Positions 1,514-31,574 of a stretch of 64,000 bases of DNA are shown here, piece after piece. The stretch's first letter is position 1. Every line of letters begins with the position of its first letter. The DNA lies in the NCBI GenBank assembly GCA_000004695.1, contig CM000151.3, positions 8,096,001 to 8,160,000 on the forward strand. Direction: 5' to 3'. Under the pieces are notes generated by a model, which worked only from the letters and a program-made list of their open reading frames with translations, was not told the origin of the DNA and did no database searches. Source of the DNA: Dictyostelium discoideum (taxonomy: Eukaryota). Made by a program: the position numbers and the translations under genes.

Positions 1514-2023
1514 ATTTTTTAATTTTAATTTTTTCTTAGGCATTTTTGGCAAATTAGTTGGTTGGAATTTTCACTCATAATTTTGTATACAGATATTTTT
1601 TTTTATTCCACATAACACAATAAACAATCACTTTTTTTGTTCTAAAATTACACTTTTATTTTTTATTTTTTTATTTTTGTTTAACCCAATTTTTAACCTA
1701 CTCGTTAACGTGGGAAGATTTTTTTTTTCCCAAGTTTCCAATTGTTTTTAAAATTTTATTTTTTTATTTTTTATTTTTTTATTGATGCCCTTTCAACTCT
1801 AAACGATTTTTTTTAAAAATTCAAACAAATTTTAAATTGCCGAATCGTTTTTTCAAGATCTGATTAGGCAAGTTTTTTCCACCAAAAGAATAAAAAAAAT
1901 TTTTAAAAAGTTGGGCTAAAGATATTTTAAAATATTTTTTTTTTTTTTTTTTGCAGTTTTAATTTTTTATTATAATTTTATTTTATTATATATATTTTTC
2001 AAAGAGTATACCACTAAATTAAA

Positions 2024-2948
2024 ATGTTAAAATTTATTCAAAAAATTTCAAAATCAAGGTGTAATTTTTTATATATATTTTTAATTTTAATTTTAATTAA
2101 TTTTTCAAATCCAAAAGTAAATTCTCAAACATTAAATAAAAATGAATATGATTGTTTAAAGAGTTTGTTAACCAATTTGGGATCAATCAATAAAGTTAAA
2201 ATTAATGCAACATCTTTAGAATATTTATTTTGTGGTACAATGGAATTTTCATCACCAAATGTTCAAATATTTTGTAATGAAGGTTCAATTTCAAAACTAA
2301 ATGTAGGACAAGCTAATTTCACATATACAGTAACTGATGATTTTTCATGTTTTAAAAATATGACTGAATTATCAGTGGATGATATTGTTTATGATAAAGA
2401 TAAATTTTATAATTAATATCCTCCAAATGCAAAAGAATTTTCATTTGATGGCACTGATTTAGTTTATGGAACTATTTCACCAATTATTAAAAAATATAAC
2501 TCAATGTCAATACAAAAAATACCAACAATAATTAAATTTTCTTGGTATTTAAATACAACTAAAATGTAGGTATAAAATAAATTATTATTATAATTAAAAT
2601 TATTTTTTTTTTAATCATTTTTATTTTCCTATTTAAAAAAAAAAAAAAAGTCATATAGAACTCTTTAGTACCTTTTAAAGGATATTTTTTAGTTTCATTT
2701 GATAATGATCTTGATGGTTCAAAAATTTGGGATTGTTCTATTTTAATTCATTCTCTAAATGTTCCATCATTAAATTTTATTACAGGCGATATTTCTTTAA
2801 ATCTAATGTTAGATTACGATCAATCATCATGGGGAAATATTACAACTTTTGGAGGAATGAGATATATGTCTCTAAGAGCTTCAGATTTATCATCTTTTCC
2901 ATTAGAGTTTTCAAATTTAAGATCTGAAGTTTTAAAATCTATGTATGT

Positions 2949-2992
<44 letters not shown>

Positions 2993-5621
2993 GACAAAAA
3001 AAAAAAAAAAAAAAGATATATTGAAATACCATTTTTAGCAGTATCTTCAAAGATTGATTTATCATTAATAGGAAAATCATTAGAATCATTATCTTTTTTT
3101 CATCCAAATAATTTTACATTTGGCGGCTTATTTCCAATAATTTTACCATCCAATGAAGCATTTAAAAAATTGGAATTTGTTAATGGAAATATTGAAACAT
3201 TTGATTTTTCATTATTTACAAATGTTGAAACATTATCATTAGAAAGTAATTTAATGTCAAATGATTTTCCTTCAAGTTTCAATAGAACAATTCATAGAAA
3301 ATTAAAACACCTTGATATAAGTAATAATAAAATGACAGGTACAATTGATGATTCATTTTGTCAATTAGAAATCATTGTTACAAATAATTCAATGACAGGT
3401 TTAATTCCAACTTGTTTTACATGTTTCTTTGGATTACCAGAAATAAATTTAGAAAGATATTTTATTGGAAATAATTTTATAAATTTAAATACACCTTCTT
3501 CACCATGTAAGTGTTTTATTTTTTATTTTTTATTTTTTATTTTTTATTTTTTATTTTTTTTTTTTAATTTGTTTTTTTTTACTAATTCCATTTATGATAT
3601 ATATATATATTTGTATTTAAGCAATTATCATTCCAAATATAGTTTTTAATAATACTTCAATTATTGAGGGTATTCCAATAGTTTTTTATGAATATTTAAT
3701 ATTTGGTGAAAATTTAGGTGGTAGTTGGGTTCCATTTACAGCTGTCTCTGATTCTGTAGGAACACCAATGATTTTTTCAATGATTGAGTCAAATAGTTTA
3801 TTTAAAGTATTTTGCTATGGAGAGCCCAAGTTTCCTTTAAACTTATCATACAGTAAGTCTAACCCAAACTATACATTTACTTTATCATTGGGAATACCAC
3901 CAATATTAAATTTAGTAGATTGGCAATCAAGTACAACTGATTTAGTAATAGATGGTTCATTCTTTACATATAATGGTTCTATAATTAATATTACAATTGG
4001 TAATGAAAATTGTTTCGTTACAAATACAAATTTTTATCAAATTAAATGTAAACTTTCAAATGTTATAGATCAATCATTAGAGGATATTATATCATATATT
4101 ACAATTGGTAATTTTAAAACTCAATTCACTTTAAATCCAGGTGTAATAAATACAATTTTAAATTGTACTGAAAATTATAATGATTGTAATGGTAATGGTA
4201 ATTGTTTATCTGATATTGGTAAATGTAAATGTGATTCAACTCATCAAGGTGATGATTGCTCAATCCCATATATAGAATGTTTAAATGATTGTAATAATGT
4301 TGGTCAATGTAATAATCAAACTGGTATTTGTTCATGCCCAATCACTCCTTACGAATGGATTGGTATTGATTGTTCAATTCCATTACATACAATATCAGCA
4401 GTTTCACCAAGTGATACCAATGGTGGTAGTGCTTCGATTTATGGTTGGTTTAGTAATAATCATACTGATCCACAAGTTTTCATTGGTAATAAACAATGTA
4501 TACCAATTTTTAGTATATCTGAAAGTGAAATTATTTGTAAAGCACCACCAGGTACAGGTTTAAAATCAGTAAGTGTAATTCAAAATTCAATCAATGTAAC
4601 ATCAAAAGATATTTATCAATATTATTCAAATGATAAACAATGTCCAAATCATTGTACATCGACATCAAATGGTATTTGTAATACAACAACTGGATATTGT
4701 AATTGTATCGGGAGATGGAGCGGTTATGATTGTAGTTTATATTCAAATCCAAGTGGTGGCGATAATAATAGTGGAATACCAGGATCAAATACAACAATAG
4801 ATGGTAATACTGGTAATACAAACATTACAAATCAACAAACAAATTATCAAATTTTAATTACAAAATTAATAGAGATAGATTTCAATGGTAATCAAATCAA
4901 TGAATATCTTTTATTAAATAAATGGTCAATAATTTCAAATATTAGTAAAACAGTTTACACATTCATTCAATCAATTCAAAATGATATATGTAATATTACA
5001 TATACAATTGAAGAAGTTAATAAAGATAGAGATGTATCATTTGCAGGTATTAATTTTAAATTAACAAGTGGATCAGTTAAAATGACAGTATCAATTGAAA
5101 ATTATCAATATTCAAGTAATTTAAATACATTACAATTACAAATGAAATCAAGTGTAAATGAAATTCAAACAAATAATGAAATGAATGATTGTAACGATGA
5201 TCAAATTGAAATTGATAGTACACCGAACCAAGATAATTCATTAAATTATATAACAATTAAAAAAGATGCAAAAGTTTTAAATGGTAGATTTATAGACAGA
5301 ATCGAAAGTGATGGTATATCAACATTTATGCAAACTGTGTTAGTATCAAAATCAAATGATTCAATTACAGTTGGTATGAATTTACCTCATTGTACAAAGA
5401 AATGTTTATTAGATCCTGACTTCTCTGTATTGATTAGTCCTGAATTCATTGATGAATGTGATGATAATAATCGTGAGTCATGGTTTTTACCAGTTGTGAT
5501 CGCTGTTCCAGTTGGAGGTCTAGCTGCAATTATTGCTATTGTTTTCATAATTTACAAAAAAAGATTTGTTGAAGCCCCATTAAAAAGAAAATTAAAATCA
5601 CTTAGAAATTATAAAAATTAA
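2024..5621 (+). pseudogene. Paralog A of an LRR / EGF-like / IPT-TIG single-pass membrane protein family; apparently disrupted; exons approx 2024..2565, ~2659/2693..2942, 3016..3506, 3622..5621
   Basis: Same four-exon architecture as the intact paralog C at 10401..13993, with near-identical nucleotide sequence in exons 1-4. TCA->TAA in exon 1 (2414..2416; C has aattCatatcc, A has aattAatatcc). A 1-nt insertion just after the predicted exon-2 acceptor creates an in-frame TAG (2656..2658). Exons 3-4 are fully open: signal peptide, LRR-like NxL repeats, CxCDSTHQGDDCS EGF-like, ISAVSPSDTNGGSASIYGWF IPT/TIG, TM LPVVIAVPVGGLAAIIAIVFIIY. Confidence 0.5.
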
Positions 5622-5941
5622 AATTGAAAATAAAAAAAGAAATAAAAAATAAAAATATCTAACCCAGGCATCTATAAAGTATAAAAAAAAAAAAAATAGT
5701 GGAAATAAAAAAAAAAAAAAAAAAAAGGTTTATATTAGAACAGATCCGAGCTGTGTTTAAAAAAAAAAAACTTTTTAATATTCAAAAGGTTTTAAAAAAA
5801 AAAAAATGGAAAAAATCAAAAAAAAAAAGAAAAAACAATGATGATTTTTTGTTTAAAAAAAAAAAACGTCTTTCCCAAACATAGATTTGTTTTCCAATAA
5901 ATTTCAAAACTAAAAAACAAAAACCCGAAAAGACACTCTTA

Positions 5942-6019
5942 TTTTTTTTATTTAATATCTTTTAAATTTTTATTCATTACGTAATGAATAAAAATTTAAA
6001 AGATATTAAATAAAAAAAA
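5942..6019. repeat. Perfect 78-bp palindrome (two 39-bp inverted arms, centre tac|gta at 5980/5981)
   Basis: Left arm 5942..5980 is the exact reverse complement of 5981..6019 (...ttaatatcttttaaatttttattcattacgtaatgaataaaaatttaaaagatattaa...). Flanked by a second imperfect inverted pair (aaacgtctttc at 5866 / gaaaagacgttt at 6046). Confidence 0.9.
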
Positions 6020-6197
6020 ATACGTAATTCAAATAAAATTTTGAAAAGACGTTTTTTTTTTTTTATTTTTGATCAATTAAATATATCATAATAATAATAA
6101 TAATAATAATATTAAATAATATTAAAAATAAATAAATAAAAATATAAAATAAAAAAAAAATAATTTTAAAAATAGTTAATTATTAAAAAAAAAGTAA

Positions 6198-7156
6198 ATG
6201 AAAAAATCTAAATCATTGATTTTTTATTTTTTTTTTATTTTTTTTTTATCTATTCAAGTAAATTCAAATGAATTAAATAAAAAAGAATATGATTGTTTGG
6301 TAAACTTTTTAACAAATTTGGGAAAAATATCAAATGTTGGTAAAAATGAAAAAACATTTGAATATGAATTTTGTAATCCCTTTTTTGTTTCATTACCAAC
6401 CGAAATAAAATGTAATCAAGGTTCAATCACTTATTTAGATACTGTTCAGTCAAATATTAGCTATATAATTAAAGATGAATTATTATGTTTTGATAATATT
6501 AATTATTTTTTACTTTCAAATATTAATTATGATAGTGCCATATTTTTCAATTCTTTCCCAAAGAGTTTAAATAAAGTTATTTTGACTGGAACGAATTTAC
6601 AATTTTCCAAAGTTACAAAAGATCTTCAAACGTTATCGATATCAATTATTTCTCAAAAAATTCCAACTACATTAAAATTTTCTTGGTTTTATAAAACTAC
6701 TCAATTGTATGTATTTATTAAATTTTTAAAAAGTTAAAAATTTGTATTAATTAAATATTAAATTGTTTTTTTGAAAAAAAAAAAAAATAAAAATAAAAAA
6801 AAAAAATAAAAAAAAAAAAAAAAATAAAAAAAAAAAAAAAAAAAAAAAATTAGTATTTTATCATCTACAAGTTTTTCAAGCAATAAAACACATTCAATAG
6901 CATTTGAAAATGATCTTAAAGATTCTGAAATTTGGGAAACTAATTACTTTAATATTATTTCATTAAATTTGCCAAAATTTAATAATGTTAAAGGATTTGT
7001 TCAAATCGAGTTAATAGAAGGATATAATCAAACTTCGTGGTCTAATATTAAAGAGATTGGGAATGTAACAAATATCTATATTAGAACAAATGATTTAACA
7101 GAATTTCCAAATGATCATCTATCAAATATCAGGTCTGATTCGATAGAGAAAATGTA

Positions 7157-7195
<39 letters not shown>

Positions 7196-9854
7196 ATATT
7201 AAATTAAACATTTAATTTTTTTTATTACTTAGAAATTTTGAAGTTCCGTTTAAATCTGTTAAAAAAATGTGCGATTTATCATCAATAGGTAAATCAATTC
7301 AAATTATTTCCTTTTCAAAATGTGGTAGAGATTTTTCATTTAATGGTTTAATGCCAATAATTTTACCAAATAACCAAGATTTTCAATATTTTTTTTTAAT
7401 TGGTGGCTATATTAAGAATTTTGATATTTTGCAATATAAAAGTGCTGAATATATTACATTAAGCAATAATTTGATGTCTGGTACCTTACCTTCAATTAAT
7501 AGTTTTAAATTCGGTAAATTAAAATATATTGATATTGGTTTTAATTTAATAACAGGTGAATTGGATGACTCATATTGTGAATTTGATATTATTGTAAACA
7601 ATAACTCAATGACTGGATTAATTCCAACCTGTTTTACATGTTTCTTTGGACTAACTGAATTAAATTTAAAATCGAGATTCATTGGTAATAATTTTACAAA
7701 TTTAGATCAACCTTCATCTCCATGTAAGTTGAAGTAGTATTTTTTAACTTTTTTTTAAAATTAAAAAGATTGAATAAATTTGAAAAAAAATTACTGACTA
7801 TATTTTATTTATAATAATAAAGCAATTATTTCACCAAATTTGATTTTCTCAAATATTGAAATATTTCAAGGTCAACCTCATTATAAATATTATATCTTTG
7901 GTGAAAATTTAGGTGGGGCTTGGATTGATGAATCAAATGCAGAGATTATTGGCTTTGATGTGAAATTTAGGGTAATAAAACCAAATAAACTAATATCACT
8001 TTACTCTCTTTCATCATTTTCTAGTATTGTAACATTTTCATATAGTAGAATAAATTCAAATTATAGATTTACTTTATCAGCAGATTTAATAACACCAAAA
8101 TTAATAAAGGTTGAATGGGTTAGTAATTCTCAAGATTTAGCTTTTGAAGGTTTTTATTTTTCCTATAATAAATCAATAATTAACATTTCAATTGGTGATG
8201 TTAATTGTCAAGTTACAAGTAGTACTTTTTATAATATTAACTGTACTCTTTTGGCACCAATAGATCTTACTTTAATTGATATTGTATCATTTATAACAGT
8301 TGGTAATTTAACAACTCAGTTCACTTTAAATCCAGGTGTTACAAATAATTTACTATATTGTATTAATGGATGTGGTGGAAATGGAATTTGTTTTTCCGAT
8401 ATTGGTAAATGTAAATGTGATTCGACTCATCAAGGTGATGATTGTTCATTACCATATATTGAATGTCCAATTAATTGTACCAATTTAAGTGTATGTAATA
8501 ATGTAACTGGTGAATGTTCATGTCCATCATTCTTAATTTGGAGCGGTATTGATTGCTCATTTCCATTACATACAATATCTGCAGTTTCACCAAGTGATAT
8601 CAATGGTGGTAGTGCTTCAATTTATGGTTGGTTTGGTAATATTCATAATGACCCACAAGTTTTCATTGGTACTAAACAATGTATACCAATTTATAATATA
8701 TCTGAAAGTGAAATTATTTGTAAAGCACCACCAGGTACAGGTTTAAAATCAGTAAGTGTAATTCAAAATTCAATCAATGTGACATCAAAAGATATTTATC
8801 AATATTATTCAAATGATAAACAATGTCCAAATCATTGTACATCGACATCAAATGGCATTTGTAATACAACAACTGGATATTGTAATTGTATTGGAAGATG
8901 GAGCGGTTATGATTGTAGTTTATATTCTAATCCAAGTGGCGGTGGCGATAATAGTGGTGGATTACCAGGATCTAATACAACAATAGATGGTAATACTGGT
9001 AATACAAATATTACACTGGTAATACAAATATTACAAATCAACACACAAATTATCAAATTTTAATTACAAAATTAATAGAGATAGATTTCAATGGTAATCA
9101 AATCAATGAATATCTATTATTAAATAAATGGTCAATAATTTCGAATATTAGTAAAACAGTTTACACATTCAATCAATCAATTCAAAATGATAAATGTAAT
9201 ATCACATATACAATTGAAGAAGTTAATAAAGATAGAGATGTATCATTTGCGGGTATTAATTTTAAATTAACAAGTGGATCAGTTAAAATGACAGTATCAA
9301 TTGAAAATTATCAATATTCAAGTAATTTAAATACATTACAATTACAAATGAAATCAAGTGTAAATGAAATTCAAATAAATCATGAAATGAATGATTGTAA
9401 CAATGATCAAATTGAAATCAATAATACACCAAATCAATATAATTCATTAAATTATATAACAATTAAAAAAGATGCAAAAGTTTTAAATGGTAGATTTATA
9501 GACAGAATCGAAAGTGATGGTATATCAACATTTATGCAAACTGTATTAGTATCAAAATCAAATGACTCAATTACAGTTGGTATGAATTTACCTCATTGTA
9601 CAAAGAAATGTTTATTAGATCCTGATTTCTCTGTATTGGTTAGTCCTGAATTCGTTGATGAATGTGATAATGATCGAAAATCCTTTTTTTTACCAGTTGT
9701 TATAGTGGTTCCTATTGTTTTTTTAATTTTAATAATTATTTTTGTAGTTATTACTATAAAAAAAAGATATGTTGAGATGTATTTATTTAAATCAAAAATA
9801 AAACAATTGGCAAACTTAAAAAATATTAAAATAAATAAAAAAACAGAATTATAA
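6198..9854 (+). pseudogene. Paralog B of the LRR/EGF/IPT-TIG membrane protein family; frameshifted in exon 4; exons approx 6198..6706, 6854..7153, 7233..7723, 7823..9854
   Basis: Exon junctions are phase-consistent (TT|GTATGT...ag|T; AT|GTAAGT...ag|A; T|GTAAGT...ag|CA). A 20-bp tandem duplication (ACTGGTAATACAAATATTAC x2 at 8995..9034), absent from paralogs A and C, shifts the frame so translation terminates at 9061..9063. The downstream 9064..9854 (IPT/TIG, TM, tail) remains open only in the +2 frame. The N-terminal exons are much more diverged from A/C than A and C are from each other. Confidence 0.55.
8995..9034 (+). repeat. 20-bp x2 tandem duplication causing the frameshift in paralog B
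   Basis: ACTGGTAATACAAATATTAC occurs twice consecutively here, but once at the homologous positions in paralogs A (~4803) and C (~13177). Confidence 0.85.
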
Positions 9855-10400
9855 TAAATAAAAATTTGATTAACAGGATTCATTTTAAAAAATTTTTAAA
9901 TATCTTCCAAACAAATCCAAATATCCATTTTCTTTTTTTTAAAAACAAATCAACACTGAAAATTCTTAAGTTTGTACGGCCGTACACAAAGTAATTTTAT
10001 GCACACCTATTTTACCTTTATTTTCCCTTTATTTTTACATTTTTTTTTTTTTGGTGAATTTTTTAGAAAAAAAAAAAAAAGAAATAAAAAAAACGAAAAA
10101 AAAAAATCAAACACCGCAATTACCTTCCGGCAAAACATTAAAATAAAAAAATAAAAATAAGATATTTTTTTTTAATATTTTCATTTTTGTGTCTGTTCGG
10201 TGTTTCAACCAAAATTTTAATCTATTAATCGTTTTGTTTAAAAAAAAAAAAAATGTTAAAATGTTGGGAAAAAGTTTTTTTTTTTTTTTTTTTAATTTTA
10301 ATTTATTTTATTTTATAATAATTTTATTTATTTTATTTATTTTATTTAATTTTAATTAATTTTATTTTATTTATTTTTCAAAATATATCTCCAAATTAAA

Positions 10401-11337
10401 ATGTTGAATTTTATTCAAAAAATTTCAAAATCTGGGTGTAATTTTTTTTATTTATTTTTAATTTTAATTTTAATTAATTTTTCAAATCCAAAAGTAAATT
10501 CTCAAACATTAAATAAAAATGAATATGATTGTTTAAAGAGTTTGTTAACAAATTTGGGATCAATCAATAAAGTTAAAATTAATACAACATCTTTAGAATA
10601 TTTATTTTGTGGTACATTGGAATTTCTATCACCAAATGTTAAAATATTTTGTAATGAAGGTTCAATTTCAAAATTAAGTGTAGGACAAGCTAATTTCACA
10701 TATACAGTAACTGATGATTTTTCATGTTTTAAAAATATGACTAATTTATCTGTTGATAATATTGTTTATGATAAAGATAAATTTTATAATTCATATCCTC
10801 CAAATGCAAAAGAATTTTCATTTGATGGCACTGATTTAGTTTATGGAACTATTTCACCAATTATTAAAATTTTTGACTCAATGTCAATACAAAATATACC
10901 AACAATAATTAAATTTTCTTGGTATTTAAATACAACTAAAATGTAAGTTTAAAATTAATTATTATTATTATTATTTTAATGAATACTAATAAAATTTTTT
11001 TTTTTATCATTTTTATTTTTCCTATTTAAAAAAAAAAAAGTGTAATAGCCTCTTTCGTACCTTTTAAAGGATATTTTTTAGTTTCATTTGATAATGATCT
11101 TGATGGTTCAAAAATTTGGGATTGTTCTATTTTAATTCATTCTCTAAATGTTCCATCATTAAATTTTATTACAGGTGAAATTACTTTAAATCTAATGTTA
11201 GATTACGATCAATCATCATGGGGAAATATTACAACTTTTGGAGGAATGAGATATATGTCTCTAATATCTTCAAATTTATCATATTTTCCATTAGAATTTT
11301 CAAATTTAAGATCTGAAGTTTTAAAATCTATGTATGT

Positions 11338-11380
<43 letters not shown>

Positions 11381-13993
11381 CAAAAAAAAAAAAAAAAGAT
11401 TTATTGAAATACCATTTTTAGCAGTATCTTCAAAAATTGATTTATCATTAATAGGAAAATCATTAGAATCATTATATTTTTTTCATCCAAATAATTTTAC
11501 ATTTGGTGGTTTATTTCCAATAATTTTACCATCAAATGAAGCATTTAAAAAATTGGAATTTGTTTATGGAAATATTGAAATATTAGATCTTTCATTATTT
11601 ACAAATGTTGAAACATTATCATTAAAATGTAATTTAATGTCCAATGGTTTTCCTTCAAGTTTCAATAGAACAATTCATAGAAAATTAAAACACATTGATA
11701 TAAGCAATAATAGTATTACAGGTACAATTGATGATTCATTTTGTCAATTGGAAATCATTGTTACAAATAATTCAATGACAGGTTTAATTCCAACTTGTTT
11801 TACATGTTTCTTTGGATTACCAGAAATAAATTTAGAAAGATATTTTATTGGAAATAATTTTATAAATTTAAATACACCTTCTTCACCATGTAAGTGTTTT
11901 ATTTTTTATTTTTTATTTTTTATTTTTTTATTTTAATTTGTTTTTTTTTACTAATTCCATTTATGATATATATATATATTTGTATTTAAGCAATTATCAT
12001 TCCAAATATAGTTTTTAATAATACTTCAATTATTGAGGGTTCAATAGTTTTTTATGAATATTTAATATTTGGTGAAAATTTAGGTGGTAGTTGGGTTCCA
12101 TTTACAGCTGTCTCTGATTCTGTAGGAACACCAATGATTATTTCAATGATTGAGCCAAATAGTTTATTTAAATTATTTTGCAATGGAGAGCCCAAGTTTC
12201 CTTTAAACTTATCATACAGTAAGTCTAACCCAAACTATACATTTACTTTATCATTGGGAATACCACCAATATTAAATTTAGTAGATTGGCAATCAAGTAC
12301 AACTGATTTAGTAATAGATGGTTCATTCTTTACATATAATAGTTCTATAATTAATATTACAATTGGTAATGAAAATTGTTTGGTTACAAATACAAATTTT
12401 TATCAAATTAAATGTACACTTTCAAATGTTATAGATCAATCATTAGAGGATATTATATCATATATTACAAATGGTAATTTAATAACTCAATTCACTTTAA
12501 ATCCAGGTGTAATAAATACAATTTTAAATTGTACTGAAAATTATAATGATTGTAATGGTAATGGATATTGTTTATCTGATATTGGTAAATGTAAATGTGA
12601 TCCAACCCATCAAGGTGGTGATTGCTCTTTGCCATATATAGAATGTTTAAATGATTGTAATAATGTTGGTCAATGTAATAATCAAACTGGTATTTGCTCG
12701 TGTCCAATCTCTCCTTATGAATGGAGTGGTATTGATTGTTCAATTCCATTACATACAATATCTGCAGTTTCACCAAGTGATACCAATGGTGGTAGCGCTT
12801 CAATTTATGGTTGGTTTAGTAATAATCATACTTATCTACAAGTTTTCATTGGTAATAAACAATGTATACCAATTTATAATATATCTAAAAGTGAAATTAT
12901 TTGTAAAGCACCACCAAGTACAGGTTTAAAATCAGTTAGTGTAATTCAAAATTCAATCAATGTAACATCAAAAGATATTTATCAATATTATTCAAATGAT
13001 AAACAATGTCCAAATCATTGTACATCGACATCAAATGGCATTTGTAATACAACAACTGGATATTGTAATTGTATTGGAAGATGGAGCGGTTATGATTGTA
13101 GTTTATATTCAAATCCAAGTGGTGGTGGCGATAATAGTGGTGGATTACCAGGATCAAATACAACAATAGATGGTAATACTGGTAATACAAATATTACAAA
13201 TCAACAAACAAATTATCAAATTTTAATTACAAAATTAATAGAGATAGATTTCAATGGTAATCAAATCAATGAATATCTATTATTAAATAAATGGTCAATA
13301 ATTTCAAATATTAGTAAAACAGTTTACACATTCATTCAATCAATTCAAAATGATAAATGTAATATCACATATACAATTGATGAAATTAATAAAGATAGAG
13401 ACACAACTTTCGCAGGTATTAATTTTAAATTAACAAGTGGATCAGTTAAAATGACAGTATCAATTGAAAACTATCAATATTCAAGTAATTTAAATACATT
13501 ACAATTACAAATGAAATCAAGTGTAAATGAAATTCAAACAAATAATGAAAATGATTGTAACAATGATCAAATTGAAATCAATAATACACCAAATCAAGAT
13601 AATTCATTAAATTATATGACAATTAAAAAAGATGCAAAAGTTTTAAATGGTAGATTTATAGACAGAATCGAAAGTGATGGTATATCAACATTTATGCAAA
13701 CTGTGTTAGTATCAAAATCAAATGATTCAATTACAGTTGGTATGAATTTACCTCATTGTACAAAGAAATGTTTATTAGATCCTGATTTCTCTGTATTGGT
13801 TAGTCCTGAATTCGTTGATGAATGTGGTGGTGATAATGATCGAAAATCCTGGTTTTTACCAGTTGTTATAGTGGTTCCTATTGTTTTTTTAACCTTAATA
13901 ATTATTTTTGTAGTTATTACTATAAAAAAAAGATTTGTTGAGATGTATTTATTTAAATCAAAAATAAAACAATTGGCAAACTTAAATAAATAA
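10401..13993 (+). CDS. Paralog C (intact) of the LRR / EGF-like / IPT-TIG type-I membrane protein family; exons 10401..10942, 11041..11331, 11399..11889, 11991..13993
   Basis: Signal peptide (MLNFIQKISKSGCNFFYLFLILILINFSNPKVNSQ). Cys-containing N-terminal domain. LRR-like repeats (LSLKCNLMSNGFPSSFNRTIHRKLKHIDISNNSITGTIDDSFCQLEIIVTNNSMTGLIPTCF). Two EGF-like modules (CNGNGYCLSDIGKCKCDPTHQGGDCSLPYIECLNDCNNVGQCNNQTGICSCP). IPT/TIG-like module (ISAVSPSDTNGGSASIYGWF...ICKAPPSTGLKSVSV). C-terminal TM (LPVVIVVPIVFLTLIIIFVVITI) and short basic tail. Donors ATG|GTAAGT, AT|GTATGT, T|GTAAGT with phase-consistent acceptors. Confidence 0.7.
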
Positions 13994-14956
13994 AAACAAA
14001 AAACAGAATTACAAATAAAAGTAAAAAAAAAAAAAAAAAAAATTTTTAATTAAATTGTTTATTTTATTGACATAAAAGGTTAAATCACATAAATATTTAT
14101 TCTCTTTTTATTTGTGTTGATTTTGTAAAGCAATCTTCAAAAAATGCATTGAAAATAGGTAAAAAATGATGTTTTCGAAATGATGTTGTGTCCAATTGGG
14201 TTGGGTGATAATTTAAATTTGCATACAAAAAAAAAAAAAAAAAAAAAAAAGAAAAAAAAAATTGCAACACCTGATTTGTAATTTACCAACAAAATAAGTA
14301 GTCAAAAACCTGGAAAATAGAAAAGAAGGAGGAAATAAAATAAAAAAATAAATAAAAAAAAAAAATAAAAAAATAAAAAAATAAAAAGGCATGAAACAGT
14401 GCAGTGGTTTGAAAATAATTTCTTTTTTTTTAATTTTATTTTTTCAAAACAGTAAAATTTTTATTTTTTTTTTTATTTTTTTTTAATAAAACGCTTAACA
14501 AAAAAAAAAAAAAAATCAAGCATTGTTTTTTTTTTATCCCCACCAACACATCATCAAAAAAACACATAAAACTGATATAAAAAATTTTAAAAAAAAAAAA
14601 ATTATTTTTAATATTTACACCGCACAACTATTTATAGTTCACATTAAACAAAAATAAAAAAATAAATAAAAATAAAAATAAAAAAATAAAAATAAAAAAA
14701 ATAAAAAACAAAAAAAAATAAAAAAATAAATTAAAAAAAAAAAAAAAGAAAAAAAAAACACACAGATAACCCGGGGTCTTTTATTTTTTCTTTTTTTCTG
14801 TTGTCAATCATAATTTGTAAAAAATAAAAAATAAAAATAAACACACACACACAACGAATTTTATTAATCATATAAATTATTTATAACAAAAAAAAAGCTT
14901 TTTTTTTTTTTTTTTTTTTATCAAACAATAATAAATTAATAAAACAATAATAAAAA

Positions 14957-17998: not shown

Positions 17999-18404
17999 TA
18001 TTATATTACTTATTACTTATTATTATTGGTCTTTTTTTTTTTTTTTTGTTTTTTTTCTAAAATTTTTTATTTTATTTTTTTTATTTTATTTTTTTATTTT
18101 ATTTTTTTATTTTATTTTTTATTTATATATTTATATATACACCCTAAGTTCTATTTTAAAAATAAAAAAAATAAAAAAAATAAAAAAATAAAAATAAATA
18201 GATTTAAATCTTTTTAGGCCTAAAAAAGTATAATTAAATTTTTATTTTTTATTTTTTTTTTTTTGTTTGGGGTGTCGAAAAAAAAAAAAACAAAACAAAA
18301 AAAAAAAAAAAAATTAAAAAAATTAAAATTGTTATCCCTGGGTGTTTTTTTTTTAAACAGGGTAAGGAGGGGGATATTTTGAAAACAACAATTTTTTTTT
18401 TTGT

Positions 18405-18560
18405 TTTTTTTTTTAATTTATTTTTATTTTTGTTTTTTTTTTTTTTGAATTGGTACCAAATTATTCCGTCAAAAATGATATCGCCCACCATACTGCCGAA
18501 TTTTGAATGAAAAAAAAAAAATATCTTCATTTTAATTACAACAAAAAAATACACACCAAA
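18405..18560. repeat. About 155-bp non-coding element, copy 1 (homologous to 24325..24480)
   Basis: tttttaatttatttttatttttgtttttttttttttgaattggtaccaaattattcc... is about 75-80% identical to 24331.. tttaattttatttttatttttgttttttttcgaattggtgccaaattattttt..., continuing through a shared ...aaaaatgata/aaaattgatg ... atcttc/atcttt segment. Confidence 0.6.
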
Positions 18561-18748
18561 ACAAAAAAAAAATGTTATAACTAATAGTTAATTTATTATT
18601 ATAATAATTATTATAAATTTTTTATTTTTTTTTAATTTTATTAATAAAATCAAAAATTTCTTGGGGAAATGAACCAAAAAAAAAAAAAAAAAAAAAAAAT
18701 ATAAAAATAAATTAATAAATAAAAAAAAGAGACTCTTTTCGCATCTTT

Positions 18749-19443
18749 TTGATAAACAAAATGAAATTTTTTTTTTTTTTATTCATCAAAATTTCATTTC
18801 ACAAATCTCAAAACATGAAAGATATAAGTTTACCAAAATATTTACACATTGATATTTTAAAACCAATAATTGATTATTTATTAACAAATAATAATAAAAT
18901 AAATTATGATAATAATAATAATAATAACAATAAATACATAATTAAAAACTATTATTTATATATAAATGAAATAATTAAATTATCATTAGTATCAAATCAT
19001 TGGTATCAAATAATATCAAATTTAATAATATCAAATTTAATATCAAATAATATTTTAGAGGAATGGTTCGATTTATATAGTGATTATTTACCAGAGGAGG
19101 AGAATGTTAATAAAGGAATTAATTTTATAGCATATGATTTTAATAAAATTTATGATGTTTATTTAACTCAATCAAATTTTAAAATGAAAGTTAATCAACA
19201 ATATTCAATTATCAAAATTAATCAATCAGTTATTGAAGATTATTTCAGAAATCAAGTACTATGTATTTATGATTTAACATATGAAAAATTATTACAACTC
19301 AGTAAATTAGAAACAGAAGGTAATTTAAAGTATAGAAAGATTATATCAAAAAATCCCTACTCTAAAGATGGTTTTAAAAATTTATTTTTAGAGGGTGGAA
19401 TTGCAAAAGGTATTGAAAAGAATGGTTTACTTGATATATCATC

Positions 19444-19540
<97 letters not shown>

Positions 19541-20806
19541 AATAATAATAATAATATTGTAGAATTAAATGTTTATGATTTTCTATTGGAAAATAATGCA
19601 GAAGAAGGTTTTTATAATTTATTACCAAAGGAAGAAGATGAATATGACATTTATAAAGATCCCCAACCAATACTCTATTTAAACACTATTGATTATGAAG
19701 GATCTCAAGATGATTATAATGAAAAAACATTTAGAATTTTGAAATACTTAAAATCAAAAAATATAATATTTAGATCAAATTATAATGAGAATGTTCATGC
19801 AGATTTTTCATTAATGTTTAACAATAAAATCAACAATCAAGTCGAGTCAATTAGAATAGATTCAGATTTTGTAGAACCAATCGATTTGCAAAATGTATAT
19901 GAACTTACAAATTTACATACACTTTCAATTCCATTACATTTTCATCAAATGATTCTATTACAATTGGGTATTGGAAAATTACATTGTAGGGGTGGTGATT
20001 TACTTGAACATAAAGATAATGTAATGCAAGATTGGGATAAAATGATTCGATCATTATTAGCAAGTAAATCAATTAAAAATTTTAAAATTTCTAATAAATG
20101 TTATACATATGAATGTATTAATAAAAGCATCAACTCTTATAATAATGAAAATTACAGTGCGGCCAGTAGACATGTTAAAAAAATATTCTCAAATGGTATC
20201 AAACAACTTTTATCATCATCAACATTTAAATATTTTAAATTTTCAAATATGTACGATATCATTAGTATTGATACATTTTCAGAATTAAAAAATAATAAAA
20301 CTCTTAAAAAATTGGTATATAAAGAAAAGTTTCATTATGGTTATAGGCTCTTCTTTACTACATCTGAAGAGGTTGCAGAATATCAATTTAATATTATAAA
20401 TTATTTAATTGAAAATATTTTTTCAAATGGCACCAGTGGTGGCAGTATGCTTAGTAATAATATCAAACATTTTAAATTTTCATTAGAATTTCCATATAAA
20501 TTAAAATTAATATTTGAATCATTATTTAAGCATTATAATTATTTTCAACTATATTCTATTACTATTGTAATATATGACACACTTTATGAAGAACTTTTAA
20601 ATGAAATTATTAATTTATCAAATAAAATTTCAAAAGTTCAACAACAGCAACAACAACAACAACAATCAATTAAAGAATTTAAAATTGTTATTGAGAAAAA
20701 CTTTAGTGACAATAAACATTTTCAATCAATATTAAATGATAGAAATATTAATGGTGATAATGGTTTATTTGTAATTACAGTTTCAAATAAAAAAAGACTC
20801 TGCTAA
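18749..20806 (+). CDS. Hypothetical protein, paralog 1 of a tandem pair; F-box-like N-terminus; contains a long poly-Asn tract. The conserved start may be the ATG at 18815 (MKDISLPKY...)
   Basis: 685-aa ORF. The N-terminal [19 protein letters not shown]...[13 protein letters not shown] resembles an F-box (LPxEIL...L..VSKxW) with an Asn-rich insertion. About 80% identical at the protein level to the ORF at 21341..23332. (AAC)n encodes about 37 consecutive Asn. Confidence 0.65.
19445..19555 (+). repeat. (AAC)n then (AAT)n coding trinucleotide repeat (about 37 Asn) in paralog 1; only about 9 Asn at the homologous site of paralog 2
   Basis: caacaacaac... run of about 95 bp followed by aataataat. 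Confidence 0.9.
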
Positions 20807-21340: not shown

Positions 21341-23332
21341 TTGTCAAATGGTTTCATGAAAGACAAGACGAAATTTTTTTTTTTAATTTATCAAAATTTT
21401 ATTTCACAACCTCAAAACATGAAAGATATAAGTTTACCAAAATATTTACACATTGATATTTTAAAACCAATAATTGATTATTTATTAACAAATAATAATA
21501 AAATAAATTATGATAATAATAATAATAATAACAATAAATACATAATTAAAAACTATTATTTATATATAAATGAAATAATTAAATTATCATTAGTATCAAA
21601 TCATTGGTATCAAATAATATCAAATTTAATAATATCAAATTTAATATCAAATAATATTTTAGAGGAATGGTTCAATTTATTTGAAGAGGATTTACAGGAG
21701 GAGGAGGAGGAGGATTTTAATAAAAGAATTAATTTTATATTATATAGGTTTAATAAAATTTATGATGTTTGTTTAACTCATTCATATTTTAAAATGAAAG
21801 TTAATCAAAAATATTCAATTATCAAAATTAATCAATCAATTATTAAAGATTATTTTAGAAATCAAGTACTATGTATTTATGATTTAACATATGAAAAATT
21901 ATTACAACTCAGTAAATTAGAAACAGAAGGTAATTTAAAGTATAGAAAGATTATATCAAAAATTTTCTACACTAAAGATGTTTTTAAAAATTTATTTTTA
22001 GAAGGTGGAATTGCAAAAGGTATTGAAAAGAATGGTTTACTTGATATATCATCAAATAAAAACAACAACAACAACAATAATAATAATATTGTAGAATTAA
22101 TTGTTTATGATTTTCTATTGGAAAATGATGCTGAAGAAGGTTTTTATAATTTATTACCAAAGGAAGATGATGAATATGGTATTTATAAAGATCTCCAACC
22201 AATACTCTATTTAAACACTATTGATTATGAAGGATCTCAAGATGATTATAATGAAAAAACATTTAGAATTTTGGAATACTTAAAATCAAAAAATATAAAA
22301 TTTAGAACAACTAGTGTTAAAAATGTTCATGCAGATTTTTCATTAATGTTTAACAATAAAATCAACAATCAAGTCGAGTCAATTAGAATAGATTCAGATT
22401 TTGTAGAACCAATCGATTTGCAAAATGTATATGAACTTACAAATTTACATACACTTTCAATTCCATTACATTTTCATCAAATGATTCTATTACAATTGGG
22501 TATTGAGGAATTACATTGTAGGGGTGGTGATTTACTTGAACATACAGATAATGTAATGCAAGATTGGGATAAAATGATTCAATCATTATTGGCAAGTAAA
22601 TCAATTAAAAATTTTAAAATTTTTAATAAATGTTATTTAGGTGAATGTATCAATCAAAGCATCAAATCTTATAATAATGAAAATTACAGTGCAGCCAGTA
22701 GACAAGTTAAAAAATTATTTTCAGATGGTATCAAACAACTTTTATCATCATCAACATTTAAATATTTTAAAATTTATAATATGCACGATATCATTAGTAT
22801 TGATACATTTTCAGAATTAAAAAATAATAAAACTCTTAAAAAATTGGTATATAAAGAAAGGTTTCTATATAATTATTGCCTACGTAATAAAGAAGAGGTT
22901 GCAGAACATCAATTTAATATTATAAATTATTTAATTGAAAATGTTTTTTCAAATGGTGCTAGTGGTAGTGGTATGCTTAGTAATAATATCAAACATTTTA
23001 AATTTTCATTGGAATTTCCAAATAAATTAAAATTAATATTTGAATCATTATTTAAGCATTATAATTATTTTCAACTATATTCTATTACTATTGTAATATA
23101 TGAAACACTTTATGAAGAACTTTTAAATGAAATTATTAATCTATCAAATAAAATTTCAAAAGTTCAACAACAGCAGCAACAACAACAACAACAATCAATT
23201 AAAGAATTTAAAATTGTTATCAATAAAAAAATTAACAATAAACATTTTCAAACAATATTAAATGATAGAAATATTAATGGTGATAATGGTTTATTTGTAA
23301 TTACAGTTTCAAATAAAAAAAGACTCTGCTAA
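21341..23332 (+). CDS. Hypothetical protein, paralog 2 of the tandem pair (F-box-like N-terminus). The conserved start may be the ATG at 21419
   Basis: 663-aa ORF collinear with 18749..20806. Shares [30 protein letters not shown], the C-terminal poly-Gln and ...[14 protein letters not shown]. Acidic insert [10 protein letters not shown] in place of paralog 1's PEEENVNK. Confidence 0.65.
   Translation: [663 protein letters not shown]

Positions 23333-29464: not shown

Positions 29465-31574
<2,110 letters not shown>

Follow-up and report, generated by a model that had tools for sequence, protein, structure and literature searches.

A 64,000-nucleotide (nt) stretch of chromosome 2 of Dictyostelium discoideum AX4 (assembly GCA_000004695.1, contig CM000151.3, positions 8,096,001 to 8,160,000 of the forward strand; hereafter the window, in whose numbering positions are given) contains three tandem paralogues of the ComC receptor family, here called A, B and C, which together form a three-zone mosaic. 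Very probably, C is an old hybrid of the A and B lineages, and the centre shared by all copies has undergone recurrent gene conversion, including tracts laid down after the genomes compared here had split. The original prediction for this DNA had read the mosaic as segmental gene conversion or unequal crossover between tandem copies, and the comparative data support recombinational exchange of this kind; the span given for it (3622-13993), however, begins at the last exon of A, whereas the array occupies 2024-13993 and the homology extends over 1945-14030.

A tblastn search of the window with the C protein found A, B and C and no other copy, all on the + strand, and a direct-repeat search placed them ~4.2 kb apart. 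The window is strongly A+T-rich (19-31% G+C), and its open reading frames (ORFs) are interrupted by short GT...AG introns. Splice enumeration gave C, the hybrid with an alpha-type 5' part and a beta-type 3' part (10401-13993, +; AX4 DDB_G0277557), exons at 10401-10942, 11041-11331, 11399-11889 and 11991-13993; the translation of 1108 amino acids (aa) is identical to P0029 (DDB_G0277557), which was found via protein-cluster membership. The exons of A, the alpha-type paralogue (2024-5621, +), were mapped from C to 2024-2565, 2651-2942, 3016-3506 and 3622-5621, and no AX4 protein for A was present among the database matches or cluster members. B, the beta-type paralogue (6198-9854, +; AX4 DDB_G0277555), has exons at 6198-6706, 6854-7153, 7233-7723 and 7823-9854, splice sites that yield AX4 protein P0025 (DDB_G0277555) over its first 520 residues, and the same Pfam architecture as C. 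By arithmetic on record coordinates, a fourth paralogue, DDB_G0277431, lies ~24 kb upstream of A on the opposite strand; it is found on contig JBTAPE010000033.1 of the sister assembly GCA_054883475.1, which also carries an Mgm101 ORF identical to that of the window.

The three genes belong to the Dictyostelium ComC receptor family, the ComC-specific Pfam domains scoring above their gathering cut-offs. In C, the ComC supersandwich domain ComC_SSD (PF22933) covers residues 829-1044 with 330.9 bits (cut-off 24) over the full-length profile, and the other matches are LRR_ComC (51.5 bits; cut-off 27), Beta-sand_ComC_2nd (33.7; 27), TIG (31.3; 20.9) and EGF_2 (26.9; 22.1). The EGF/TIG repeats sit between the ComC LRR with its second beta-sandwich and the supersandwich, and homologues carry the same precomputed domain set. 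A, B and C are thus uncharacterised paralogues of comC with the shared architecture LRR_ComC, Beta-sand_ComC_2nd, EGF, TIG and ComC_SSD; a comC mutant is listed as aggregating aberrantly (PMC2873529). A C-terminal hydrophobic stretch followed by KKR is a predicted single transmembrane helix, and, judged from sequence, each gene would encode a signal peptide, an LRR head, beta-sandwiches, EGF-TIG-EGF repeats, the ComC supersandwich, this one helix and a short tail.

In a three-way MAFFT alignment, with identity taken in 100-nt windows, A and C were 0.92-1.00 identical from A~1983 to A~4370 (positions prefixed with a letter are those in that gene), introns included, versus 0.45-0.86 for A-B and B-C. 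By segment, A-C identity was 94.6% over exons 1-3 with introns and 97.3% over the 5' part of exon 4, versus 62-68% with B, and the likeness begins ~80 nt upstream of the ATG. It had been claimed that exons 1-3 are nearly identical in A and C and divergent in B, and this was borne out, 'nearly identical' meaning 94.6% in DNA and 90-93% in protein. All three pairs reached 0.90-1.00 over A4369-5446, in agreement with the expected similarity of the central EGF/IPT region, and central-block identity among A, B, C and DDB_G0277431 was 94-98%. From A~5446 to the stop codons, B and C remained about 94-96% identical, as against 62-73% for A-B and A-C (by segment, ~94% for B-C and 64-67% with A), and the B-C likeness continues ~15-37 nt past the stops; the near identity of the B and C tails and the difference of A from both (0.95-0.96 versus 0.62-0.73) were therefore correctly recognized, and the peptides quoted for them occur in the ORF translations. 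The sliding-window profile is a three-zone mosaic, and uniform divergence of the three pairs is excluded.

The 963 informative sites (787 AC|B, 115 BC|A and 61 AB|C) were strongly clustered. The best three-segment model assigned BC|A, AC|B and AB|C counts of 36/752/41 to A1946-4328, 17/23/18 to A4331-5175 and 62/12/2 to A5196-5643, with breakpoints at A4328/4331 and A5175/5196; the gain in twice the log-likelihood (2*lnL) of this two-breakpoint model was 313.6, compared with a mean of 15.7 and a maximum of 30.9 in 200 permutations. The first model segment corresponds to the alpha-type 5' block of A (1945-4330, +), which comprises 80 nt of promoter-proximal DNA, the first three exons and introns and the initial 709 nt of exon 4, and which C carries at 10331-12696 (+). 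The homogenised central block lies at 4331-5456 in A, 8517-9662 in B and 12697-13822 in C (all +) and in A covers the end of an EGF repeat, TIG, an EGF repeat and the ComC supersandwich (~aa 676-1050). At the protein level, converted from C12697 and C13823, the tract ends fall at ~residue 676, in the EGF repeat just before TIG, and at ~residue 1052, just after the supersandwich. The beta-type transmembrane/tail cassette occupies 9701-9869 in B (+; with ~15 nt of 3' flank and a derived read-through end, …LKNIKINKKTEL) and 13867-14030 in C (+; with ~37 nt of 3' flank and the stop position of the B orthologue in locus L001, introduced below). Because every breakpoint lies within exon 4, the mosaic is not the product of exon shuffling.

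The break had been placed just after SWFLPVV. For the deep divergence of A-type and B-type tails this is accurate, since it starts directly after this motif, at A5498, B9701 and C13867; however, B reads SFFLPVV, and sites at which B and C agree and A differs already start ~300 nt before the deep break, at A5196. These additional sites stem from separate recent events, namely a B-C exchange and the overwriting of A by DDB_G0277431.

Orthologous loci were fetched from five other genomes. Loci L002 and L007 (D. discoideum) carry A-B-C, as does L008 (D. discoideum), in which A is truncated and usable for exons 1-3 only; L001 and L009 (D. cf. discoideum) carry A-B only plus the positional orthologue of DDB_G0277431; L004 (D. 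cf. discoideum, GCA_054859235.1) carries G1-A-A'-B and an alpha 5' fragment; and L006 (GCA_054883475.1), of the same lineage as the window, carries A-B-C. Flanking housekeeping exons differ by ~1.4-3% between the compared genomes and the window. In quartets of two paralogues and their two orthologues, sites were scored as supporting orthology or grouping by genome; quartets with DDB_G0277431 used the positional orthologue from L009, the L004 gene G1 having been rejected because it is not its orthologue. Synonymous divergence (dS) was estimated by the Nei-Gojobori method, trees were built by neighbour-joining with bootstrap, and identical runs were assessed by our own implementation of a GENECONV-type run test with 2000 permutations of site order, which found significant fragments, as the original prediction had led one to expect.

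In A/B quartets against three other genomes, each comparison showed ~530-680 orthology sites and no more than 5 by-genome sites in the 5' region (2024-4330), and 29-39 and 0, respectively, in the tail. Over A4701-5195, by contrast, four A/B quartets contained 0-2 orthology versus 3-14 by-genome sites. Quartets of A or B with DDB_G0277431 displayed the same pattern (0 orthology versus 7 by-genome sites for A/DDB_G0277431 at A4701-5195). In neighbour-joining trees, copies of the centre group by genome (bootstrap 80% for L004, 74% for L001 and 54% for the window), whereas the flanks group by gene, all B and C tails forming a beta-tail clade at 100%. The central ~1.1 kb is thus kept near-identical across the family members, DDB_G0277431 included, by recurrent short-tract gene conversion, within which donor and recipient are not assignable from outgroup comparison. 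At 5012-5042 (+), a short patch of A equals B (and DDB_G0277431) and differs from C at 8 sites in 31 nt (DVSF versus DTTF; run test A-B, P=0.026), and both versions of the patch are scattered among the paralogues of other genomes, as short tracts would predict.

Three further exchanges postdate the separation of the genomes. Between A and C, compared with L002, the interval 2024-3015 contained 17 orthology and 8 by-genome sites, and 3016-4150 contained 1 and 16; in the 5' part of exon 4, the window copies of A and C group together at 98%, with a dS of 0.021 versus 0.10-0.17 for orthologues, and the run test identified 3817-3970 (P<0.0005). A and C therefore exchanged sequence after the split, from exon 3 to A~4700, the by-genome counts covering the part up to ~A4150. 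B and C did so over the equivalent of A5196-5456, where they are 98.5% identical and share window-specific states (1 orthology versus 4 by-genome sites); the run test also identified 5573-5612 for this pair (P<0.0005). The clearest case is a recent tract of DDB_G0277431 type in A (5339-5594, +), which covers the juxtamembrane region, the transmembrane helix and the proximal tail. Over 5339-5587, A and DDB_G0277431 are concordant at 51 polymorphic sites (P<0.0005); they are 100% identical over A5440-5594, where the A copies of L001 and L002 carry different sequence; their tails form a clade at 97.5%, with a dS of 0.10 versus 0.35-0.77 between the A tail and its orthologues; and the last 8 codons of A return to the A type. 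Because the L001 orthologue of DDB_G0277431 has the DDB_G0277431-type sequence and the A copies of L001 and L002 do not, DDB_G0277431 was the donor and A the recipient. Conversion thus reaches beyond the three tandem copies to a gene that is inverted and 24 kb away.

These results bear directly on the possibility that C formed once as an A-5'/B-3' hybrid and that nothing was exchanged afterwards. The hybrid and its junction are indeed common to L002 and L008, and exons 1-2 and the B/C tails retain orthology signal. However, a single event leaves unexplained why B, DDB_G0277431 and other paralogue lineages match A and C in the centre, and it accounts neither for the A/C by-genome sites at 3016-4150, with their clade and low dS, nor for the DDB_G0277431-derived tract in A. 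We therefore consider this explanation quite improbable, and favour an old hybrid followed by recurrent conversion.

The older of these layers is the origin of C. In exons 1-3, the C copies of three genomes form one clade (97.5%) and the A copies another (70%), and both together exclude the A of L001 (85%). In the tails, the B/C differences are mostly common between genomes (5 orthology and 2 by-genome sites). C has the stop position of the L001 B gene, the read-through end of B in the window and in L002 being derived, and its downstream flank is collinear with the flank after B in L001, where A-B alone precede the same downstream genes as the window array. The B-C spacer (9855-10400, +), the junction formed at the origin of C, shows full-length homology with the L002 and L008 spacers (E=1e-100 to 1e-104); with the low-complexity filter on, its last ~200 nt (10196-10400; spacer positions 342-546) match the upstream regions of alpha genes, and with the filter off the search returned A/T-rich noise only. 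C is thus an old A-5'/B-3' hybrid: the A lineage supplied its upstream region, exons 1-3, the introns and exon 4 as far as ~700 nt, and the B lineage its tail cassette and 3' flank. As the hybrid and the B-C junction are common to three D. discoideum genomes, C arose once, before their separation. It sits at the original 3' end of B, and the A-C identity in the 5' part and the B-C identity in the tail mostly date from this single old event.

The simplest recombinational scheme, in which A and B of an A-B array misaligned and one unequal crossover gave the three-gene array directly, has some attractions: its exchange point lies in the homogenised centre, an ideal substrate, and L001 has just such a two-gene array. 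Nevertheless, such a crossover predicts the order A, B-5'/A-3' hybrid, B, with a lone A-5'/B-3' gene as the reciprocal product, whereas the observed order is A, B, A-5'/B-3' hybrid. This makes the single crossover very improbable, and we infer two steps. Either the A-B pair was duplicated in tandem and an unequal crossover then deleted the DNA between the central blocks of A' and B', or A was duplicated and its 3' end then converted by B; C may have arisen by either route, and the data do not separate them.

It could also be argued that no recombination took place, divergence being uniform and the mosaic reflecting strong purifying selection on the centre, with selection that is relaxed or diversifying for the head and tail. 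The centre does encode the conserved folded domains TIG, EGF and ComC_SSD, and its nonsynonymous divergence (dN) is low (0.01-0.04). However, dS falls along with it: alpha-beta paralogue values of 0.67-0.75 for the 5' part of exon 4 drop to 0.09-0.14 centrally (0.04 in L004) and climb back to 0.65-0.9 for the tail, and within the central block paralogue dS equals orthologue dS. The paralogues of one genome, moreover, share derived synonymous states that differ between genomes, which gene conversion produces and protein-level selection cannot, and the A-C identity spans three introns and ~80 nt of upstream DNA, which is not explained by protein-level constraint. Selection without recombination is therefore extremely improbable. 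Least credible of all, to a degree that is practically negligible, is an assembly artefact, with hybrids mimicked by collapsed or mis-joined repeats: the AX4 reference was assembled long ago from Sanger reads, and two single-base lesions in A differ from a newer assembly, but across 16,995 nt the independent same-lineage assembly GCA_054883475.1 is collinear with the window at 99.78% identity and has both the three genes and the 20-bp duplication of B, and two further genomes have the same A-B-C order.

Several observations nevertheless weigh against an old hybrid combined with recurrent conversion, or against parts of it. The four window copies group together in the centre with a bootstrap of only 54%, the by-genome sites per bin are few (3-14), and the DNA of DDB_G0277431 was taken from the sister assembly rather than from the window. 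The third-codon-position G+C content (GC3) is 0.10 both in the converted centre and in the unconverted 5' part of exon 4, so that GC-biased conversion leaves no mark. The filtered search detected no source for the opening ~340 nt of the B-C spacer, and the tandem-duplication junction expected under the two-step model is hypothetical. The time and route given for the origin of C are tentative; the alpha fragment after B in L004 implies that the order A-B-alpha may predate the split from L001, with subsequent loss in L001.

As to mechanism, homologous recombination repair between copies could have used the ~95%-identical central block as its substrate, and conversion would halt where divergence is too high for heteroduplex formation, that is, in the LRR/beta-sandwich head and at the two tail types. 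The tracts do stop where identity falls to ~60-70%. As conversion would be blocked in the diverged head and tails, the boundaries would maintain themselves.

We also considered an adaptive reading, a 'variable head, constant stalk' family in which conversion holds the TIG-EGF-supersandwich stalk constant across at least four paralogue lineages, among them inverted copies tens of kb apart, heads diverge freely and tails are swapped; selection would then favour modular exchange for the new pairings it creates between recognition heads and signalling tails, as in systems that recognize self, kin or prey, and the exchange would not be a neutral by-product of tandem repeats. The LRR/beta-sandwich heads are ~60% identical, and tail cassettes have been swapped, C having that of B and A that of DDB_G0277431. 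We regard selection of this kind as rather unlikely. In the beta-sandwich-encoding 5' part of alpha exon 4 (3622-4330), dN/dS is 0.029/0.021 between A and C and 0.068/0.083 between A and the A of L001, so that values in the alpha lineage reach ~0.8-1.4, versus ~0.25-0.3 among B orthologues and for the centre; on few sites, the difference suggests that selection here has been relaxed or is diversifying.

Only C is intact in the window, A and B being disrupted. A carries an in-frame TAA at codon 131 (2413-2415, +), where C and L006 have TCA (Ser), position 2415 being A in the window and C in L006, and an extra A near the start of exon 2 (2659, +), a frameshift that is not in L006. No in-frame splice model for A with at most one stop exists, and restoring both L006 variants yields an intact 1107-aa ORF. 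Because neither lesion is present in the 99.78%-identical L006, they are either reference errors or AX4-specific mutations. In exon 4 of B, a perfect 20-bp tandem duplication (8995-9034, +; two copies of ACTGGTAATACAAATATTAC) causes a frameshift with a stop after residue 846, and removal of one unit restores a 1103-aa ORF. This duplication is also present in L006, and the B orthologues in L001, L002 and L008 are annotated as full-length genes. The AX4 model DDB_G0277555 (P0025) bypasses the frameshift by an artificial intron, dropping NQQTNYQILITKLIE, and ends in an implausible C-terminus (…VEIIIINKNLINRIHF…) in place of the beta tail. B thus resembles a recent pseudogene that has been modelled as intact.

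Window and GCA_054883475.1 show just 13 differences in 17 kb, three of which are coding changes in the ComC genes: the nonsense and frameshift changes in A, and TT in place of GG at 9685-9686 in B (SFF for SWF). The SFF variant is found both in B of the window and, by cluster look-up, in AX4 DDB_G0277555, and it is either a reference error or an AX4-specific mutation. The annotation of L006 at 3001-14945 (GCA_054883475.1, P0026) joins A, B and C into one 3150-aa protein, its splices running from each transmembrane region into the next gene just past the signal peptide; this fusion is almost certainly a prediction artefact due to the repeats.

The gene order in the region is TerD gene, A, B, C, Arf-like GTPase and ammonium transporter; an exact protein look-up of the TerD ORF gave no match, the real gene probably being spliced. 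Between the TerD gene and A, extra ComC-like copies occur in L001 (a 448-aa fragment, 8026-9418) and L004 (the full gene G1, 1559-5236), and none in the window; the copy number of the cluster thus varies among close relatives. In L004, an alpha-type upstream region with exons 1-2 (18036-19227) lies directly downstream of B, at the position of C, and synteny breaks after it, without the Arf or ammonium transporter gene; it may represent C in truncated form or a partial duplication that took place independently. The surroundings of DDB_G0277431 in D. discoideum (L003, 1-8711) are full of retroelement genes (rve, RVT_1), and its counterpart in D. cf. discoideum (L009) lies just a few kb from the cluster, so that transposon insertion may have moved DDB_G0277431 away while conversion continued.

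Two other observations concern ORFs elsewhere in the window. A second tandem pair of paralogous ORFs (18749-20806 and 21341-23332, +), of 685 and 663 aa, lies downstream of the ammonium transporter; the two are very similar, contain Asn/Gln runs, have no Pfam match and are also present in two copies in L002 and L008. A 589-aa ORF (29465-31234, -) contains a long Asn run, EGF-like motifs rich in cysteine and, close to its C-terminus, a hydrophobic segment, and has no Pfam match at E<=0.001; it may encode another single-pass surface protein, unconnected to the ComC mosaic.

Our literature searches found nothing relevant on ComC-family evolution, on gene conversion in Dictyostelium or on the evolution of these genes, and the one mention of DDB_G0277555 was in a list of genes located close to methylated cytosines. 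The locus is a natural, well-resolved case, in a social amoeba, of concerted evolution confined to one domain block, and its layers are dated: an old hybrid, post-split tracts and a base-perfect tract received from an inverted gene 24 kb away. In practice it matters for annotation, as it explains why AX4 gene models are unreliable here, and orthology calls and trees of the ComC family need to be made segment by segment.

Concerted evolution by interlocus gene conversion is well established in tandem families such as the globin, opsin and MHC/KIR clusters. The ComC array has the same hallmarks, namely within-genome paralogues that are closer than orthologues over the tract, low dS within it, sharp boundaries and permutation-significant fragments, and it shows nothing mechanistically different; its particulars are that homogenisation is confined to one domain block within a single large exon and that an inverted copy 24 kb off takes part. 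Region-restricted gene conversion is also known from the clustered protocadherin genes, which are likewise clustered single-pass adhesion or receptor-like genes with part of their coding sequence homogenised and the membrane-distal ectodomain diverse. In contrast to the protocadherins, the ComC genes belong to an unrelated protein family and number 3-5 copies, each a complete gene with its own tail and no shared constant exons, and their link to recognition is putative. Hybrid genes from unequal crossover are exemplified by Lepore-type globin fusions and red/green opsin hybrids, and C is similarly made up of the 5' part of a tandem paralogue and the 3' part of the adjacent one, joined within a high-identity stretch. 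Unlike those hybrids, however, C follows both of its intact parents, whereas a hybrid from a single crossover would replace or separate them; two steps, or duplication plus conversion, are therefore needed. The ComC array thus leaves the current understanding of gene conversion unchanged and adds a new and well-documented instance, though no new kind, to the textbook cases of interlocus gene conversion, here combined with an old hybrid gene.

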